NCBI GenBank assembly: GCA_963799015.1
Contig: CAWCWD010000062.1
Span: 51 to 64,050 of the forward strand
DNA length: 64,000 nucleotides
DNA from: an uncultured Actinomycetota bacterium
GTDB taxonomy: Bacteria; Actinomycetota; Actinomycetes; Actinomycetales; Microbacteriaceae
Direction: 5' to 3'
Made by a program: the position numbers and the translations under genes. The notes under the pieces are model-generated. The model worked only from the letters and a program-made list of their open reading frames with translations. It made no database searches and was not told the DNA's origin. Below are positions 6,360-63,144 of this stretch, piece by piece; position 1 is the first letter of the stretch, and each line of letters begins with the position of its first letter.

Positions 6360-6438
6360 AACGGATGAGCCGGGGCGGATGTGACATCCGCGACAGCGAC
6401 ATCCGTGCTTGCGTCACATTCGCCGCGGGTGGATCGTC
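6360..6438. promoter_or_regulatory. Back-to-back ECF41-type promoters
   Basis: Minus strand TGTCACA(6386-6380)-N16-CGTT-N8-ATG; plus strand GTCACA(6413-6418)-N16-CGTC-N8-ATG. Confidence 0.75.
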
Positions 6439-6446
6439 TTCCTGTC

Positions 6447-7322
6447 ATGACCGATTTCTCCGACCTGTGGACCGCGCACCGACACGTCGTCCGCGACGTC
6501 GCCTACCGGGTGCTCGGATCCGTCGCCGAGGCCGAGGATGTCACCCAGGAGACCTACCTCCGGCTGCTCGCCCGCGGCGATGAGCCCGACGCGGAGCCGC
6601 TCGACGAGCCGCGCGCGTGGCTGGTCACGGTCGCGTCCCGGCTCGCGATCGACCGGTTGCGCGCGCACGAGCACTCCCGTCGCGCCTACGTCGGGCCCTG
6701 GCTGCCGGAACCGATCGTCACCGACGAGCGGACGCTTCCCGAGGACCGCGTCACCCTCGACGACTCGGTGCGGATGGCGCTGCTCGTCGTGCTCGAACAG
6801 CTCACGCCCGCGGAACGCACGGCGTTCCTCCTCCACGACGTGTTCGACCTCGGCTTCGACCGCATCGCCGACGTCCTCGGCGTGAGCCCGGCGAGCGCGC
6901 GGCAGTCCGCGTCACGCGCGCGGAAGCGGATCGCCGCGCAGGGCGAAGCCCGGTTCTCCGTCGATCCCGCCGCCGCCCGCCGACTGTCGGAGCGATTCGC
7001 CGCTGCCGCGTCCGACGGCGACCTCGCCGGGCTGGTCGCGGTGCTCGCGACGGATGCCACGGGCCACTTCGACTCCGGCGGCATCTTCCCTGACGCGCCG
7101 ACCGAGGTGGTCGTCGGCGCCGAGACGGTCGCCCGGCAGCTCCTCGCCGGGGTCGGCGGGCGGGGCCTCGACTTCGAGGTCGCGGAGGTGAACGCCGAAC
7201 CGGGGATCGTCGTCCGCCGCCGGGGGCGGGTCGTCTCCGTGCTCGCGCTCGAGTTCGCCGACGACCGGATCTCGGTCATCCACGGCATCGGGAATCCGAA
7301 GAAGCTCGCACACGTGCGGTGA
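6447..7322 (+). CDS. sigJ: ECF41/SigJ-family sigma factor with SnoaL-like C-terminal extension
   Basis: YVGPWLPEP and NPKKL (NPDKL-like) motifs; AEAEDVTQE region 2. Confidence 0.9.
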   Translation: MTDFSDLWTAHRHVVRDVAYRVLGSVAEAEDVTQETYLRLLARGDEPDAEPLDEPRAWLVTVASRLAIDRLRAHEHSRRAYVGPWLPEPIVTDERTLPEDRVTLDDSVRMALLVVLEQLTPAERTAFLLHDVFDLGFDRIADVLGVSPASARQSASRARKRIAAQGEARFSVDPAAARRLSERFAAAASDGDLAGLVAVLATDATGHFDSGGIFPDAPTEVVVGAETVARQLLAGVGGRGLDFEVAEVNAEPGIVVRRRGRVVSVLALEFADDRISVIHGIGNPKKLAHVR

Positions 7323-50301: not shown

Positions 50302-50397
50302 CGCACGCTCCTTCTCCTCCCGCTATTCCCTCTCGACTCGGCCGAGCCTGTCAAGAGCAATGACCGGTCAGGCGGCGCGTTGTGACATCCGTTGCCG

Positions 50398-56733: not shown

Positions 56734-57186
56734 ATGACCGACGCGACCGCTTTCTTCGACACCCTCGTCCGGCTCGAGATCGAGCTCTGGAACGAGATCG
56801 ACGCACGACTCCACGACACAGACGGGGTGACGTTGGCGCGCTACCAGGCCCTGCAGGCCGTGCACGAGCACGACGGCCGAGCGCGCGTGCACGAGGTCGC
56901 GCAGGATCTCGGCATCACCATCGGCGCGGCGAGCAAGCTCGTCGACCGGCTCGAGCACGACGGGAGCGCGCGCCGGGAGCCGAACCCGAACGACCGCCGC
57001 TCGTCACTCATCGCGCTCACGCCCGCCGGGGTACGGCTGCACGAGGCCGCATCCACGACCTTCGCGGCCGCAGCGGAAGCCGCGATGCCCGCGGACCTGC
57101 GCGGCGACGAGCTCGAAGCGCTCACCCGACGGCTCGACGAGGTTCGTCGGCACCTGAAGCTGCGTGGTTCGGAGGCGACGGCATGA
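56734..57186 (+). CDS. MarR-family regulator
   Basis: ASKLVDRLE...NPNDRRS...LTPAG. Confidence 0.92.
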   Translation: MTDATAFFDTLVRLEIELWNEIDARLHDTDGVTLARYQALQAVHEHDGRARVHEVAQDLGITIGAASKLVDRLEHDGSARREPNPNDRRSSLIALTPAGVRLHEAASTTFAAAAEAAMPADLRGDELEALTRRLDEVRRHLKLRGSEATA

Positions 57187-58164
57187 GCGGCACGATGCGC
57201 GCGGTCGTCATCGACGGCCCGGGGGCGCCCGAGGTCCTGCAGGTCCGCGACGTCCCCATCCCCACCCCGAAGCCGGGATGGGTCCTCATTCGCGTCAAGG
57301 CGTTCGGGCTCAACCGGTCGGAGCTGCACTTCCGGCAGGGCGTCGCCTACTCGGGCAGCTTCCCGCGCATCCCCGGCATCGAGGCATCCGGAATCGTCGA
57401 GGCCGCACCCGGCGGCGAGTTCGAGCCCGGCACGCAGGTCGTCACCCTGATGGGCGGGATGGGCCGCGAGTTCGATGGCGGCTACGCGGAGTTCGTCGTG
57501 GTTCCAGCCGAACAGGTGATCGCGTTCACGAGCGACCTGCCGTGGTCGACGCTCGGTGCGGTGCCCGAGATGCTGCAGACCGCGGCCGGCTCGCTCGACG
57601 TGGGCCTCCAGGCGACCGAGGGACAGACGCTCCTCATCCGCGGCGGCACCTCGTCGATCGGCATGGCCATCGCCGTGCTCGGCAAGCTCCGCGGGATGAC
57701 CGTGCTCTCGACGACGCGGAACCCCGCGAAGGCCGAGTCACTCGAACGACTCGGGGTCGACCACGTGCTCATCGACGACGGCAGGATCGCCGGGCGCGTT
57801 CGCGAGATCGTGCCGGGCGGCGTCGACGGCGCGGTCGAACTCGTCGGCGTGAACGTCATGCGCGACACCCTTCGGGCGACCCGCAGCGGCGGCACGGTCT
57901 GCTTCACCGGAATGCTGTCCGACGAGTGGACCATCCACGAGTTCTACCCGATGGACTGGCTGCCGAACGGCGTACGGCTCACGGCGTACTCGGGCGAGGC
58001 GGCCGACCTCTCCCCCGAGACGTTGCAGGACTTCCTCGACCGCGCCGCGGCCGGCGAGGCCGTCATCCCCGTCGGCCGCACCTACCGACTCGACGAGATC
58101 GTGCAGGCGCACCGCGACCTCGAGGCCGAACGCGGTCGGCGGCAAGGGCGTCGTCGTCCTCTGA
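57183..58164 (+). CDS. MDR-family NADPH:quinone oxidoreductase (apparent frameshift near 58130)
   Basis: VKAFGLNRSE, PGIEASG, RGGTSSIG; C-terminal GKGVVVL* in the shifted frame. Confidence 0.88.
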
Positions 58165-58442
58165 CCCCATCGCATCCACGATCGAACGGAGCGCGCATGT
58201 CCTGGATGGCCGAGATGTCGTCGTACCGCTACCTGGCCGAGCTCAAGCGCCGCTACGCCGAAGCGGATGCCGCGGCCGCGCACCCCGCGCCCGAGCCCGA
58301 GCCCGACCCCATGCATCCGACCGAGCGGATGCCGCGGCCGGCGACTCCTCGCACGGGCGGGAGGCCGCCCGACCCCTCGATAGCGCCCGCCCATCGGCGT
58401 AGCGTGGCCCGCGAAGCGAAGGGCCGAACAAGGGGGTCACCG

Positions 58443-58910
58443 ATGGCCGAGCTCTCATTCATCCAGCCATGCCTGTGGTTCGACGACCAGGCGCGCGAGG
58501 CGATGGCGTACTACGTCGACGTGTTCCCGAATTCGCGCATCATCCGGATCGACGACTATCCCGACGAATCGCTCGACGAGCACTTCACGGGGATGTCGGG
58601 CAAGGTGATCAACGGGCAGTTCAGCCTGAACGGGGTGGAGTTCACCTGCCTCGACGGCGGCCCGCTCTTCCGGTTCAACGAGTCGATCTCGTTCATCGTG
58701 TCCTGCAAGGACCAGGAGGAGATCGAGTACTACTGGTCGAAGCTGTCGCACGTGCCCGAGGCGGAGCAGTGCGGCTGGTGCAAGGACCAGTTCGGGCTGA
58801 GCTGGCAGGTCATCCCCGCGAACATGGGCGAGCTGACCAAGCGGCCCGAGCAGGTGCAGGTGATGATGGGCCAGAAGAAGATCGTGATCGCCGAGCTCGA
58901 GAACGCCTGA
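58443..58910 (+). CDS. PhnB-like VOC protein (3-demethylubiquinone-9 methyltransferase-like family)
   Basis: IQPCLWFDDQAREA...CGWCKDQFGLSWQV. Confidence 0.9.
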   Translation: MAELSFIQPCLWFDDQAREAMAYYVDVFPNSRIIRIDDYPDESLDEHFTGMSGKVINGQFSLNGVEFTCLDGGPLFRFNESISFIVSCKDQEEIEYYWSKLSHVPEAEQCGWCKDQFGLSWQVIPANMGELTKRPEQVQVMMGQKKIVIAELENA

Positions 58911-58959: not shown

Positions 58960-59404
58960 CTACGCGTCGACCAGTTCGAGCCGCTGCTTGAGGAGCGCGA
59001 GGCTCGCAGGCATCTCGGTGCGCGCGCCGCGGGTGGCCATCACCCGGATCAGCTTGCCGATGCCGTGCCCCTCGAACCAGACGCGGTAGTCGACGTGCGT
59101 GCCGGTGCCCTCGGTCGGCGCGAATGCGATGTCGACGTGGGCACGCACGGGCCCATCGATGCCCTCGACCGCCCATCGGCCTCCGGGCTCGTAGTCGGTG
59201 ACCTGCCACCGCGCCTTCTGCCTGCCGCCCGGCACCCGGCGGATCTCGTACCCGCGCATGCCGACCTGGCGGATCGCGGGCGGCTCGGCGGATGCCTCCT
59301 CCACCGACGGTTGCCACTCGGGAAGCCGAGCCGCGTCGGTGACGTAGTCGAAGACCTCCTGCGGCGCTGCGGGCGATCTCGGTGCTGCATTCGATGACCT
59401 TCAT
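58960..59404 (-). CDS. SRPBCC-family protein (apparent frameshift near 59365)
   Basis: EVFDYVTDAARLPEW...SLALLKQRLE. Confidence 0.8.
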
Positions 59405-59474
59405 GGCGGCCACCTCCCTGAACGGTCGGCGCGTCGTTGCCCGACCTATATTGATGACAGTATCATTCTCCTTA

Positions 59475-60132
59475 ATGTCAGAAGTGTCAAGACGTCCGTA
59501 CGACGCGACGCGTCGTCGCCAGCAGGCGGCCCGAACGCGGGCGCGCATCATCGAGGTCGCCGGGCGGCTGTTCGTGGAACGCGGGTACGCAGGAACCACG
59601 ATCCCCGCGATCGCCGGCGAGGCCGGCGTGGCCGTGGAGACGGTCTATCGCTCCGCGAGCGGGAAGGCCGGGCTGCTGGCCGACGCCGTCCGGGCCGCCG
59701 TAGCGGGTGGCGCGGAGCGCGCGGAGGTGCCGGTCACCGAACGGCCCGCGATCCGGCGGATCACAGGAGGAGGTGGATCCGGTTCGGCAGCTGCAGCTGT
59801 ATGCGGCGACGCAGCCCGGGATCTGGTCGCGCGTCGGCCCGCTCCTTCGCGTGCTCGACGCCGCGGCCAACAGCGACGCCTCGCTGGTCGAACTCCGCGA
59901 CCAGATCGCCGCCGAGCGGCGGCACGGCCTGCGAGACGGGTTCGGCCGGATGCTCGAGCAGCGCGGCGTGCTGCGTGACGGCGTCACCGCCGAGCGCGCC
60001 GGCGACATCGTGTACGCCGTGTGCGGACAGGCCAACTACGTGGCGCTCGTCGGCGACTGCGGCTGGACGGAGGAAGCCTACGAGTCCTGGCTGGCTGAGA
60101 CGCTGGTCGCCGCGCTGCTCCCTCCACGGTAG
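59475..60132 (+). CDS. TetR-family regulator (apparent frameshift near 59765)
   Basis: RRPYDATRR...GTTIPAIAGEAGVAVETVY. Confidence 0.85.
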
Positions 60133-61722
60133 GAATCGCGCTCAGTCTCCAGAGCAGCCGGCGTTGCCGCGTCGAGCCGGTCCTCGAAGAAGAATCGCGA
60201 GAGGCGCGCTCGGAGGCGCTGTGTCCAACGCACGCGACCGCCGGATGCCTCCAGCGCCAACGGGGTGTGCGTCTCGACGTCGAGCAGCCGCCATCGTTCG
60301 TACTCGTTCAGCCGCTGGTGGACCTCGATGTACTCGCCCCCGGGAAGACGTACGATCCGGCCGGTCTCGAACCCGTGCAGCAGGAGGTCGCGGTCCTTGC
60401 GCTGGAGGGCGATGCAGACCCGTCGCGCAACACTGAACGCGATGATCGGCCCGGCGACCAGCAGGATCTGCAGGGCGAGCACGACCCCTTCGATCGTGAG
60501 GCTGAAGGCGACCGCCATGAGATCCGCGCTTCCGGCGGCCCAGAGCGTGCCGTAGAACACGATTCCGGCGAAGCCGATGCCGGTCCTGGTCGGCGTGTTC
60601 CGCGGGCGGTCGAGCAGGTGGTGGTCGCGGTGGTCGCCGGTGATCCACTCCTCGATGAACGGATACGTGGCGACGAGCAGGAGGAAGACGCTGATCACCG
60701 CCAACGGTGCGAGCAGGGCGAGCGTCCACGTCCGGTCGAATGCGACGATCTCCCAGCCCGGTGGCACGAGTCGGAGCGCACCGTCGAGGAAGCCGGTGTA
60801 CCAATCCGGCTGGCTGCCGGCGCCGGCATTGCCGGGTGAGGCCGGGCCGTACAGCCAGACGGGGTTGATCGTGACGGTGACGGAGACCAGCAGCAGGATG
60901 CCGGTGACGATGAGGAAGAGCCCGCCGGCACGTGCAGCCGCGTCGGGAAGGAGCGGTATGCCCACGACGTTCGCCTCCGTGCGCCCGGGGCCCGAGAACT
61001 GCGGCGGCTTGGCCCGGTACGTGATCGCGATGCGGATGGCGATGAGCAGCACGAGGATCACGGGTACGACGGCGACGTGGAGCGGGTAGAGGTTCTCGAT
61101 GATCTGCCCCGGGAACGCCCCTCCGAAGAACAGGTCCTTCAGCCAGGTCCCGACGACCGGAATGCCGAGCAGGATGCCTTCGAAGATGCGCAGCCCCGTT
61201 CCCGAGAGCATGTCGTCGGGAAGGGCGTATCCGCTCCACCCGCCGGCGAGCGCGGTGATCAGGATCAAGAAGAGCAGGACCCAACCCGCGCGCCGCGGCT
61301 TGCGGAACGCACCGGTGAAGAACGTGACCAGGAGCTGCCCGATCAGGGCTGCGGGCAGCAGCAGTGCGGCCCAGTGATGGGCCTGCCGAAGGAGCAGCCC
61401 GCCCGGAACCTCGAACGAGATGTGCAGCGTCGACGCGAACGCCTTCGACACCTCCTGGCCCTGCAGGGTCGGAACCCGTCCGTCGTACACGACCGTCGTA
61501 CTCGATGGGGTGAAGAAGAACATCAGGATGACGCCGGTCACCATGATGACCGGCAAGGCAGGCGAGCGCGATCACCCCGAACATGTTCGACCAGTGCACG
61601 GGCACCGTGCGATGGCGCAGGTCCTCGAGCACCGCAGCACCCCGCTTGCCGACCGTCGTCCGTGCGACGTGGCTGGAGAGCCGACCCGTCAGGCTGGAGC
61701 GTGGCATCCGCTCGACCGGCAT
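60078..61722 (-). CDS. qcrB: Orphan cytochrome bc1 cytochrome b (QcrB) paralog lacking heme bH ligands (apparent frameshift near 61560; 3' end may be near 60142)
   Basis: HWS, RQAHHWAA, FFTGAFRKPR, GYALPDDMLSG, SQPDWY, LLDRPR, HGFETG; RBS AGAAAGGAG. Confidence 0.88.
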
Positions 61723-61752
61723 CTCGTCTCCTTTCTGTTCTCCTACCCATAC

Positions 61753-61779
61753 GACACCGCAGCGGTCTGATTTGTGACA
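61753..61779 (-). promoter_or_regulatory. ECF41-type promoter TGTCACA-N16-TGTC upstream of the qcrB paralog
   Basis: Same -35 and spacing as the promoters at 6360-6438. Confidence 0.6.
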
Positions 61780-61823
61780 GTGGAGGCCGACCTCGGCGAG
61801 CTGGATGCCGCCATCGCGAGGCG

Positions 61824-62475
61824 TCAGAGCGGACGAACCGGCTGACGCAGCACGGTGCGCAGCTTCTCCGGCGCCGTGCGCCGGGCATCGCTGAGGTACA
61901 CCTCGTGGTGCGGGCCGTTGAAGGTGAGGCGCTGCTGCGGCATCCATTCGTCGTGCAGGCGCGCAAGGGTCGGCGCTTCATCGTCGTACGACCCGACGTG
62001 GAGGATCTGCGCCGACGGTCCCTCGTGCAGGTGCGCGAGGCGAAGCTGGTCGAGTGCGGGGTTCTCACGACCGCCCGACTTCGAGATCTTCGCGCGAATG
62101 GTGTCGACCGCGGCGGCGACGGCCTCCTCGTCGATCCAATCGGGTTGGGCGATCAGCATCGTCCAGCTCCACGCGCCCTTGTCGCGCGCGACGAAGGCGC
62201 CCTGATCCTCCGCCCACCAGAGCCCCTCGAGCGGTGCGACGACGAAGTCCCGCTCGAGCATCCGCTTGCTGGCGAACTTCACCGCATAGCCCACCCCGAA
62301 CAGCGCCTCGACGGCGTCGCGGTACCACGCAGCCGTGTTGGGATCGCCCTGCCCGTCGACCGCGAGGTACCGCATCGGTGGCACATCGACGATGGCGAAC
62401 TCTTTCGCCGACGGCGCGTACAGCTCCGGATGCTCCCGCTTGACGTCGTACTTCTCGTTCGCATCGGGCGGCCAT
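61824..62475 (-). CDS. GyrI-like small-molecule binding protein (start uncertain, indel near 5' end)
   Basis: YLAVDGQGDPN, VAPLEGLWW, HVGSYDDE, HHEVYLSD...KLRTVLRQP. Confidence 0.85.
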
Positions 62476-62551
62476 GGCGGGAGGCGTACGCCCCGGGTCG
62501 GACAGTTCCGTGACCGGATTCCATCGCGGCCGAATGCGAAGCCCGACGCCG

Positions 62552-63011
62552 TCAGGGCGACCGCGGCGTGAGGCGGATGACCGGGATCTCCCGGTCGGTG
62601 ATCCGCTCGTATCGGGCGAATCCCGATGCCGTGCGCCGTGACCTGCCGCCATGCCGCCTCGCGCTCGTCGCCGTGCAGCTGCTCCGGCGTGACCTCGATG
62701 CGCTGACCGGCGAACTCGACCCGCACTCGGTCGGGGTGCGCCGCGATGTTGTAGTACCACGCGGGGTTCCGGGGCGCGCCGCTCGCCGACGCCACGATGA
62801 GCTTCGTGTCGCCCTCGCCGGGGAACCATCGCACCGGAGTCATCCGCTCGACGCCGGTCTTCTTCCCGATCGTGACGAGCACCAGCTTGTCACCGGGCTT
62901 CGCGTCCTTCCGGCGCATGCGCTCCACCATCTTCTGGTTCCCCCACCGCTCGAGCCGGTTGCGGCCGGGCTGGCGGGCACCTCGGGTTCCGTTCGGAGTA
63001 TCGAAGGCCAT
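62552..63011 (-). CDS. F420-dependent nitroreductase/quinone reductase (Ddn-like; apparent frameshift near 62625)
   Basis: TIGKKTGVER.TP...VASASGAPRNPAWYYNI...TDREIPVIRL. Confidence 0.85.
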
Positions 63012-63144
63012 GCGCGACGCCTCCTCGGGTGGCGATCCTTCCCTCAATCATCCCGCGATTCGGCGGGTCGTGCTGTCAGGCACCGGCGAACCGTGCACTG
63101 GCAGGGCCTCCCTCGCCGACGGAACCCGACGTAGCGTCGAGCGG

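Follow-up and report, generated by a model that had tools for sequence, protein, structure and literature searches.

Can a cytochrome b that has lost both axial histidines of its inner haem, bH, still belong to a respiratory complex? This question is raised by a QcrB-like gene of a soil actinobacterium, located on the minus strand at positions 61722..60078 of the 64,000-nucleotide stretch of DNA analysed here (the window). Comparison with its relatives indicates that the gene codes for a genuine and conserved alternative form of QcrB, the cytochrome b subunit of actinobacteria.

Haem ligands and quinone sites

The 492-aa open reading frame scores 539.3 bits against the NCBIfam QcrB model NF050120, and orthologue P0062 scores 575.6 bits. 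Both exceed the cut-off of 500 bits, and annotation pipelines label such variants as ordinary QcrB, making them invisible in annotations. The part at 60078..61550 matches Pfam PF13631 (2.5e-43) and PDB chain 7q21_B (2e-114). An AF2 model (pTM 0.70), in which the helical bundle is predicted at normal confidence, has helices that match the eight-helix cytochrome b fold with its actinobacterial C-terminal extension, and Foldseek aligns the model to the QcrB chains 7q21_B and 6hwh with a TM score of 0.75.

We set the haem bH columns by alignment with the canonical QcrB of the same genome (contig C57, locus L001) and with the Corynebacterium glutamicum and Mycobacterium smegmatis structures, and counted residues in 117 variant homologues, with 15–16 canonical QcrB sequences compared. 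In minus-strand translation, helix B of the gene reads AHHWAALLLPAALIGQLLV and helix D reads LHVAVVPVILVLLIAIRIAI. Translation and a codon check confirm the replacements named in the original prediction: the helix B bH ligand is Gln (CAG, 61335..61337) and the helix D ligand is Arg (CGC, 61032..61034). Of the four axial histidines of actinobacterial QcrB, only the bL pair is left, in helix B (61377..61379) and in helix D (61077..61079), each kept in 117/117 homologues. Each replacement codon is one base from a His codon, and we considered a base-call error; this was rejected, as more than 110 independent sequences agree. Because 116/117 homologues have the Gln and 113/117 the Arg, the substitutions are due neither to chance nor to base calling, and bH loss defines a clade.

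The surroundings of the lost haem have changed as well. Three residues after the helix B ligand, canonical QcrB has Arg in 16/16 sequences, which we take to be the haem bH propionate partner; the window gene has Val (61326..61328), and 115/117 variants have T, V, S or A. At the menaquinone ligand of the Qi site, Glu38 in C. glutamicum numbering, an HMMER alignment places Val (61573..61575; PMC8795186), with V, I or A in 109 variants and E in 15/15 canonical sequences. The second Qi residue that we compared, Lys253, is Arg in the window gene and in 114/117 clade members, and a further conserved canonical His on the N-side is Pro in the variant clade. The N-terminal drift from HWSF.LGE to HWSNMFGV that had been predicted is also there, in a different frame from the rest of the gene and with Glu38 gone. 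With no bH ligands, no invariant Arg and no Qi ligand, the variant can therefore neither bind the inner haem nor reduce menaquinone. As far as these residues tell, the paired ligand loss, which defines a conserved clade under purifying selection, must abolish the Q cycle within that subunit, as was originally argued.

Binding of haem bH through other ligands would restore a two-haem protein, and we searched for anything in the data that might support it and found nothing. Gln and Arg are unusual axial ligands of haem. Further, the wider clade has R, Q, W, Y, H, I, V or G at the helix D position, and the canonical-invariant Arg near the helix B ligand has gone together with the Qi residues, leaving this reading scarcely credible.

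The P-side, in turn, is kept, at 100% for each residue compared: the bL ligands, the full Qo site, the proton-exit residues from the Rieske His on and the C-terminal extension. Both GYALPDD and QPDWY are intact, as predicted. The Qo motif PDWY (60798..60809) is conserved in 117/117 homologues at each position, as are Tyr153 and the Ex1 residues Asp302, Arg306 and Asp387. Additionally, the equivalent of C. glutamicum QcrB Glu453 (60324..60326), which in that species contacts the entry of the D-channel of the aa3 oxidase (PMC8795186), is present here and in 116/117 homologues. The published C. glutamicum supercomplex structure (PMC8795186) supplied all functional residues, which were transferred through the HMMER alignment.

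A conserved clade and a probable assembly frameshift

The reading frame of the window gene is broken. Its first 57 codons, Met1–Ala57 (61552..61722), include HWSNMFGV and the start of helix A and are colinear with the N-termini of the intact homologues P0002 and P0008; the remaining 490 codons and the stop (60078..61550), which encode the rest of helix A, helices B–H and the C-terminal extension, lie in another frame. The break is one extra base in CCGG (61550..61553), absent from every intact homologue and probably an error of the assembly. A frameshifted gene in this assembly counts against an intact, functional isoform, and the single extra base behind codon 57 is what speaks for a fresh, strain-specific pseudogene within a family that is functional elsewhere.

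Several observations make this reading improbable. First, the genes rpoB and rpoC, sought as frameshift controls, are absent from the assembly, and we instead took a census of frame changes against the proteins of relatives. Across conserved coding sequence it counted 51 frame changes in 133 kb of the assembly and 2 in 681 kb of the relatives, with the canonical qcrB among the affected genes; the assembly has a completeness estimate of 64%. Because this rate is so far above that of the relatives, the N-terminal frameshift very probably arose in assembly. Second, dN/dS against the nearest intact orthologue is 0.26, and the two sides of the shift hardly differ (0.27 before it, 0.26 after it). 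Over the variant clade the median is 0.29; the same genome pairs give 0.23 for canonical QcrB. The decay scenario of the original prediction, a real frameshift with dN/dS near 1, is thus improbable, and by this measure bH-less QcrB is a conserved clade under purifying selection. Third, the promoter and the ribosome-binding site of the window gene are intact.

The variant is patchily distributed, occurring in about 13 of 150 sampled Microbacteriaceae genomes. Every genome that bears it has at least two matches, the variant always being additional to the canonical qcrCAB copy, and the window genome also holds a second paralogue. The Qo motif of more distant bH-less families often has another residue in place of its Asp (PGWY, PPWY), and Qo catalysis is therefore not universal among bH-less QcrB-like proteins. 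A single clade for all bH-less forms is rejected by the C-terminal two-thirds of the protein (AU p = 0.016), and the tree test on the N-terminal third rejects no topology; convergence and a chimeric origin are therefore both possible. A class-level genome search with a member of the second family returned canonical-level matches only (43–53% identity), leaving that family unsampled, and the second gene copies from this search supplied two-haem controls and two further bH-less genes.

In agreement with the original claim of novelty, our literature searches found no description of a bH-less QcrB or of a one-haem cytochrome b of bc complexes. The four cytochrome b histidines have been treated as invariant and sequences without them have been filtered from surveys, one major survey explicitly dropping cytochromes b that miss any of the four (PMC4122944).

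An ECF41-type promoter and the gene neighbourhood

Upstream of the gene, on the same strand, lies TGTCACA-n16-TGTC (61779–61753), 31 nt before the ATG, closely following the documented ECF41 consensus TGTCACA-n16(±1)-CGTC (PMC3426412). The −35 element TGTCACA occupies 61773..61779 and the −10 element TGTC, 16 nt further on, 61753..61756; a ribosome-binding site, GGAG (61728..61731), stands 6 nt before the ATG. The exact motif would be expected by chance in a 150-nt window with a frequency of 2.6e-4, and no sigma-70-like promoter was found in 59900–62000. This is one of 15 full motifs in the 8.5 million strand-bases of the genome, which precede the window gene, its second paralogue and otherwise CMD, NmrA-like and NDH-2-like genes. 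The motif recurs upstream of 18–19 of 20 orthologous loci and at 4/4 more distant bH-less QcrB-like genes, and at 0/24 two-haem cytochrome b loci. The occurrence of an ECF41/SigJ promoter before bH-less QcrB is new in this analysis. An Rfam search of the conserved leader that follows the ECF41 promoter at window position 50387 gave no match.

Sigma factors that could act on this promoter are encoded in the genome. A tblastn search with a SigJ-type sigma factor, itself above the NCBIfam SigJ and SigX4 cut-offs, gave at least six matches in the genome to ECF41 sigma factors with a SnoaL_2-like C-terminal extension. Two of these matches lie on this contig. One, on the plus strand at 6412..7319, has its own CGTCACA-n16-CGTC promoter (6412–6438; ATG at 6447), and is a candidate regulator of the variant gene. 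A CMD–sigma operon just past the window end (contig C62:66724–68237, promoter match at 68237) is a nearer candidate. The sigma factor adjoining the orthologues also scores above the NCBIfam SigJ cut-off.

The gene had been described as stand-alone, which is true of its gene order in the window; it is nevertheless preceded by an ECF41/SigJ promoter, and its orthologues often share an operon with an NDH-2-like gene. Its own neighbours are TetR, Polyketide_cyc2, F420H2-quinone reductase and GyrI-like genes. As predicted, neither qcrA nor qcrC is adjacent, and the gene is thus encoded apart from the pair that accompanies canonical qcrB. There is no Rieske gene near it on the contig; the only QcrA-like Rieske gene found in the genome adjoins the canonical qcrB on contig C57, and no qcrA or qcrC paralogue accompanying the variant was found in the genome.

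This absence of partner paralogues is consistent with a quite different role, in which the variant would be the membrane partner of a co-transcribed NDH-2-like flavoprotein, and perhaps of a nearby FrdA-like one, and contribute a quinol/quinone pocket and one P-side haem to an ECF41-induced module for quinone or redox detoxification. An NDH-2-like gene abuts or overlaps the variant gene at 7/20 loci, in both gene orders and including the second paralogue of the window genome, many orthologues are translationally coupled to it, and NDH-2-like, FrdA-like, NmrA-like and CMD genes carry the same ECF41/SigJ promoter. Linkage at about one-third of loci hints at such a different partner. However, the window copy and most of its close orthologues are without the flavoprotein, and residues whose presence is understandable only beside QcrA (Asp302, Arg306 and Asp387) or beside CtaD (Glu453) are invariant. 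We regard this alternative as unlikely. A complex prediction for the Leifsonia orthologue (residues 1–480) with its operon-coupled NDH-2-like protein scored 0.00, which is evidence on binding in neither direction.

Proposed role and relation to known systems

Conservation in more than 100 relatives and a place behind an ECF41/SigJ promoter make the variant look like part of a conditional, Q-cycle-less complex III. The retained QcrA-linked proton path and the aa3-docking Glu, as read from the alignment, make an alternative subunit of the supercomplex a better reading than a decoy or a sensor. Our best explanation, which we hold to be evenly balanced between right and wrong, is that stress induces the variant as an alternative isoform of QcrB, and that this isoform puts the Qi half of the Q cycle out of action.

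In this mechanism, an active ECF41 sigma factor would lead to synthesis of the isoform, which would replace QcrB in the bcc–aa3 supercomplex, either alone or paired with canonical QcrB, and would work with the only QcrA and QcrC. Where the dimer is mixed, the bL electron could cross the bL–bL bridge to the bH and Qi site of the partner. In a pure variant dimer, the Q cycle would be off: the complex might stall and so serve as a brake, sending flux to other oxidases, or might work as a low-coupling menaquinol oxidase by passing both electrons through the fixed Rieske centre. During the redox or quinone stress that induces the isoform, either option would lower a respiration step that depends on membrane potential. 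There is a precedent from experiment: when one half of a bc1 dimer carries a bH knockout, the dimer works through the bL–bL bridge, and symmetric knockouts fail to support growth (PMC4152375). The pure variant dimer is without a known outlet for the bL electron, which weighs against our explanation.

The inactivity of symmetric bH knockouts (PMC4152375), together with an expression that appears conditional on an ECF promoter, would also suit a protein that is assembled but catalytically dead and serves as a brake, a decoy for Qo inhibitors or a quinone sensor. More than 100 sequences, however, keep the catalytic Qo and proton-exit residues and both bL ligands, which is more than a pure decoy needs, and dN/dS differs little from the canonical value; we consider a dead regulator distinctly unlikely. 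A broader form of the proposed isoform model is possible but doubtful. Here, an ECF41/SigJ-induced QcrB without bH and Qi, together with a non-pumping NDH-2, would convert bcc–aa3 into a low-coupling menaquinol oxidase that runs no Q cycle, or into a cross-dimer-dependent one, and the change from His to Gln and Arg and the ECF41 promoter would have arisen or spread in at least two QcrB lineages.

A one-haem QcrB that is maintained by selection and keeps what menaquinol oxidation and docking to the oxidase require would be a natural experiment, a complex III without a Q cycle, in which one could ask where the bL electron goes, whether electrons pass between monomers, how much superoxide is produced and what the H+/e− ratio is. 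It would also link ECF41/SigJ, which is widespread and functionally obscure and has small COE oxidoreductase genes as its known targets so far, to respiration; if true, this would be its first physiological output. QcrB is the target of telacebec-class drugs, which lends a practical side to the study of alternative isoforms in actinomycetes and of how they are regulated.

The variant resembles canonical QcrB (C. glutamicum 7Q21/7QHM and M. smegmatis 6HWH/6ADQ) in fold, length class, approximately 54% identity to the family's canonical copy, bL ligands, Tyr153, PDWY, the Ex1 proton-path residues and the C-terminal extension with its oxidase-contacting Glu. It differs in being without the bH ligands, the invariant Arg and Glu38, in the exchange of a conserved His for Pro, and in lying outside the qcrCAB operon, behind an ECF41 promoter and with a patchy distribution.

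As a monomer without bH, it is similar to the engineered Rhodobacter cytochrome b H212N, which in fused or heterodimeric bc1 works only by bL–bL transfer to an intact partner (PMC4152375, PMC4330944). Unlike in these laboratory point mutants, the loss here is natural and ancient, the whole N-side is remodelled and the gene has its own regulator.

Extra, unlinked qcrB copies are also known from an actinomycete, Streptomyces coelicolor, as QcrB2 and QcrB3; QcrB3 co-purifies with supercomplex components, which supports exchangeable QcrB isoforms, in a study that does not discuss haem ligands (PMC7931247). In contrast to the variant, the extra QcrB proteins that we sampled from large-genome actinomycetes (L077–L079) keep all four histidines and are without the ECF41 motif.

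Finally, the promoter signature and the motif-bearing CMD and NmrA-like neighbours are those of ECF41 regulons with COE targets (Wecke et al. 2012, PMC3426412). That work found no conserved ECF41 targets besides COE and sigma genes and has no mention of cytochrome, whereas cytochrome b and NDH-2-like genes are recurrent candidate targets here.

Haem ligands and reading frame

The window gene, a QcrB-like cytochrome b gene (61722..60078, minus strand), contains an open frame of 492 codons (61556..60078, minus strand) that matches cytochrome b (Pfam PF13631, 2.5e-43) as well as solved actinobacterial QcrB chains (7q21_B, 2e-114). The gene proper begins with the ATG at 61722 (minus strand), behind a GGAG, and codons 1–57, including HWSNMFGV, lie in a different frame from the rest. 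Comparison with intact homologues places the break at one surplus base in CCGG (about 61553–61550); with this base removed, the protein reads ...ACLAVIMVTG... and is colinear with the homologous proteins P0002 and P0008. Among named proteins, the closest relatives come from Agromyces and Leifsonia, and the organism therefore probably belongs to the Microbacteriaceae. The fold modelled by AlphaFold2 (pTM 0.70) matches QcrB chains at a TM of 0.75.

Helix B reads H-HWAALLLPAALIG-Q (Gln codon CAG) and helix D reads H-VAVVPVILVLLIAI-R (Arg codon CGC). The original prediction that Gln and Arg replace the histidines of the N-side haem bH is thus borne out by translation, by both codons and by alignment with the canonical copy on contig C57 of the same genome, which keeps both histidines. 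The loss proves to be a clade trait: among 117 aligned full-length relatives, compared with canonical sets of 15–16 sequences, Gln stands in 116/117 and Arg in 113/117. Other residues have changed too: the Arg 3 residues past the helix B ligand (16/16 canonical) is Thr, Val, Ser or Ala in 115/117, and in 107/117 Pro replaces the conserved His of the KH motif that follows helix D in canonical sequences. Residue roles were transferred from the C. glutamicum supercomplex (PMC8795186) by alignment to solved QcrB chains. Glu38, a Qi-site menaquinone ligand in that complex (PMC8795186), is Glu in 15/15 canonical sequences and Val, Ile or Ala in 109 variants; the Lys253 position is Arg in 114/117.

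The P-side presents a different picture. Both haem bL histidines, Tyr153, the Qo motif Pro-Asp-Trp-Tyr, Asp302, Arg306 and Asp387 are kept in all 117 variants, and the intact bL ligands and Qo motif are as predicted. Asp302, Arg306 and Asp387 form a proton path starting at the Rieske His, and Glu453 of the C-terminal extension, kept in 116/117, contacts the oxidase D-channel entry (PMC8795186). Replacement of N-side residues together with retention of the P-side and Glu453 makes the erasure, as judged from the alignment, selective: the N-side redox half is lost, and the P-side half and supercomplex contacts are intact. This retention counts against a rival reading in which the variant is a catalytically dead regulator.

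Distribution, selection and the frameshift

Nearly all of 150 sampled Microbacteriaceae genomes have a canonical QcrB match (51–57% identity), and about 13 of the 150 have an extra match at 60–71% identity, always alongside the canonical copy. In the present genome the variant occurs twice, as the window gene and on contig C42; the only congeneric genome in the sample lacks it. In a quick maximum-likelihood tree, the Microbacteriaceae variants form one clade (SH-aLRT 99), sister to the family's canonical QcrB. Within this clade, the helix D position is also H, Y, Q, W, I, V or G and the helix B His is kept in a few members; at least one ligand is absent in every member. The variation at helix D counts against alternative haem ligation, a rival reading judged very unlikely.

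A separate, deeper ligand-less QcrB-like set (430–500 aa) includes proteins of Actinoallomurus, Actinomadura, Nonomuraea, Spirillospora and some Streptomyces, with the same Gln/Arg pair in 64/120 and PGWY replacing PDWY in many; a third small group combines the pair with PPWY. A single clade of all bH-less forms is rejected by the data from helix D to the end (AU p = 0.016), the N-terminal third of the alignment being uninformative on this question; either convergence or a chimeric origin may lie behind them. Deep-branching bH-less families from other actinomycete orders (loci L044, L045, L081 and L082; proteins P0128 and P0281–P0399) are shorter, often have PGWY or PPWY for PDWY and carry the same ECF41 promoter; at L044, a SigJ-like sigma gene directly follows the bH-less gene.

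The frame break raises the possibility of a strain-specific pseudogene. Nei–Gojobori dN/dS between the window gene and its nearest intact orthologue is 0.27 before the frameshift and 0.26 after it. Over 45 genome pairs, the median is 0.29 for the variant versus 0.23 for canonical QcrB from the same genomes, with amino-acid divergence about twice that of the canonical protein. These values indicate purifying selection on the bH-less clade and speak against a decaying gene family.

The frameshift is most probably an assembly artefact. When the assembly was probed with proteins encoded at relatives' loci, 51 frame changes turned up over 133 kb of conserved coding sequence that aligned, affecting 37 of 108 gene-level matches; treated in the same way, the relatives' loci had 2 in 681 kb. 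The variant copy on C42, canonical qcrB and the adjoining TetR gene are split as well, and rpoB and rpoC are missing from the assembly, whose estimated completeness is 64%. Across the assembly, conserved coding sequence has about 0.4 frame changes per kb, over 100 times the rate at relatives' loci; examples in the window are a TetR gene in two frames (59382–60132) and two stretches where a pair of genes reads as one ORF (57183–58910 and 61824–63047). Gene calls of this genome are unreliable, and the completeness estimate may partly reflect frame changes.

ECF41 promoter and gene neighbourhood

TGTCACA lies 51 nt 5′ of the window gene ATG and is followed after 16 nt by TGTC; on sequence, this promoter is a match to the ECF41 signature TGTCACA-n16-CGTC (PMC3426412). 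No sigma-70-like promoter was found in 59900–62000. Only 15 ECF41 motifs occur in the genome, on 8.5 million strand-bases, and among the genes behind them are both variant copies, an NDH-2-like gene, a CMD gene, NmrA-like genes and a SnoaL-like gene; none of the 15 precedes canonical qcrB. Of 20 variant loci, drawn from different genomes, 15 carry an exact copy no more than about 110 nt 5′ of the variant gene or of the NDH-2-like gene at the head of its operon. At a further three the motif differs by one mismatch, and at another it sits farther upstream, in a possible longer operon. Exact copies also precede 2/2 second-family and 2/2 third-group genes, and the motif is absent from 24 two-haem cytochrome b loci, stand-alone two-haem paralogues included. 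The chance of an exact motif per 150-nt window is 2.6e-4, the surveyed loci being mutually related; their intergenic sequences are otherwise divergent. Loci of unpublished genomes were excluded and no claim is based on them.

The sigma factor adjoining orthologues exceeds the NCBIfam SigJ/SigX4 cut-offs, and this genome has at least six SigJ-like sigma genes, with an ECF41/SigJ-like one at 6447–7319 in the window and, 5 kb upstream of the window gene, a CMD-sigma operon. A further exact ECF41 promoter lies at 50381–50387 (minus strand), and also at L007:7280 and L008:13607 in other loci. The roughly 100 nt downstream of it hold a conserved leader with a hairpin-like GGCTCGGCCGAGTC core, which precedes an acetyltransferase gene in relatives and has no Rfam match at E <= 0.01.

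The predicted stand-alone status holds for the window copy, which is monocistronic (neighbours TetR, Polyketide_cyc2, F420H2-dependent quinone reductase and GyrI-like genes), the only QcrA-like Rieske gene found in the genome being beside canonical qcrB; it fails at 7/20 loci, including that of the second copy, where the variant gene and an NDH-2-like gene adjoin or overlap, whichever of the two comes first. These two arrangements bear in opposite directions on a rival in which the variant and the NDH-2-like protein form a separate module. FrdA-like flavoprotein, NmrA-like and SigJ-like genes recur close to variant loci.

The second paralogue (C42:17657-20833; loci L002 and L023) is likewise a Gln/Arg form interrupted by a frame change. 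It lies behind a separate exact ECF41 promoter, with an overlapping NDH-2-like gene after it and a divergent FrdA/SdhA-like flavoprotein gene before it. A third NDH-2-like gene (C7:16906-18333) has no cytochrome b beside it; its ECF41 promoter is exact and is accompanied by a second, divergent motif. A more distant NDH-2 copy on C53 (about 60% identity) may be the housekeeping enzyme. At L005:9619-10011, with equivalents in L011–L014 and L019, the variant is directly followed, with overlap, by a gene for a stand-alone SnoaL_2-like protein of 130 aa. This protein is a homologue of the regulatory domain at the C-terminus of SigJ/ECF41 sigma factors and may modulate the sigma factor. Upstream of the window gene, an ORF with F420H2-dependent quinone reductase and GyrI-like domains (61824–63047, minus strand) probably represents two genes joined through a frame change in the assembly. 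This ORF is quinone-related, though its neighbourhood is not conserved at other loci.

Possible role and known systems

Sequence analysis shows loss of the bH and Qi determinants, retention of those for bL, Qo and docking, purifying selection and the ECF41 motif. We infer that the variant would be an inducible alternative QcrB joining the bcc-aa3 supercomplex. In Rhodobacter, an engineered dimer with one bH-less half supports growth via a bL–bL bridge, and symmetric knockouts do not (PMC4152375). Because such one-sided dimers support growth, a mixed dimer of variant and canonical QcrB would keep turning over. A dimer of two variant subunits would either stall or send both electrons through the fixed Rieske centre with lower coupling. 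Speculatively, co-induction with a non-pumping NDH-2 would fit low-coupling, high-flux or protective respiration.

Literature searches yielded no account of a naturally bH-less QcrB. The main Qo-motif survey discarded sequences without any one of the four histidines (PMC4122944), the ECF41 study reported no conserved targets other than COE and sigma genes (PMC3426412), and discussion of the known Streptomyces QcrB paralogues does not address the ligands (PMC7931247). NCBIfam labels the variant as ordinary QcrB, a naming that hides it among ordinary QcrB. Unlike the bH-less variant, the extra QcrB copies sampled in large-genome actinomycetes are two-haem proteins.
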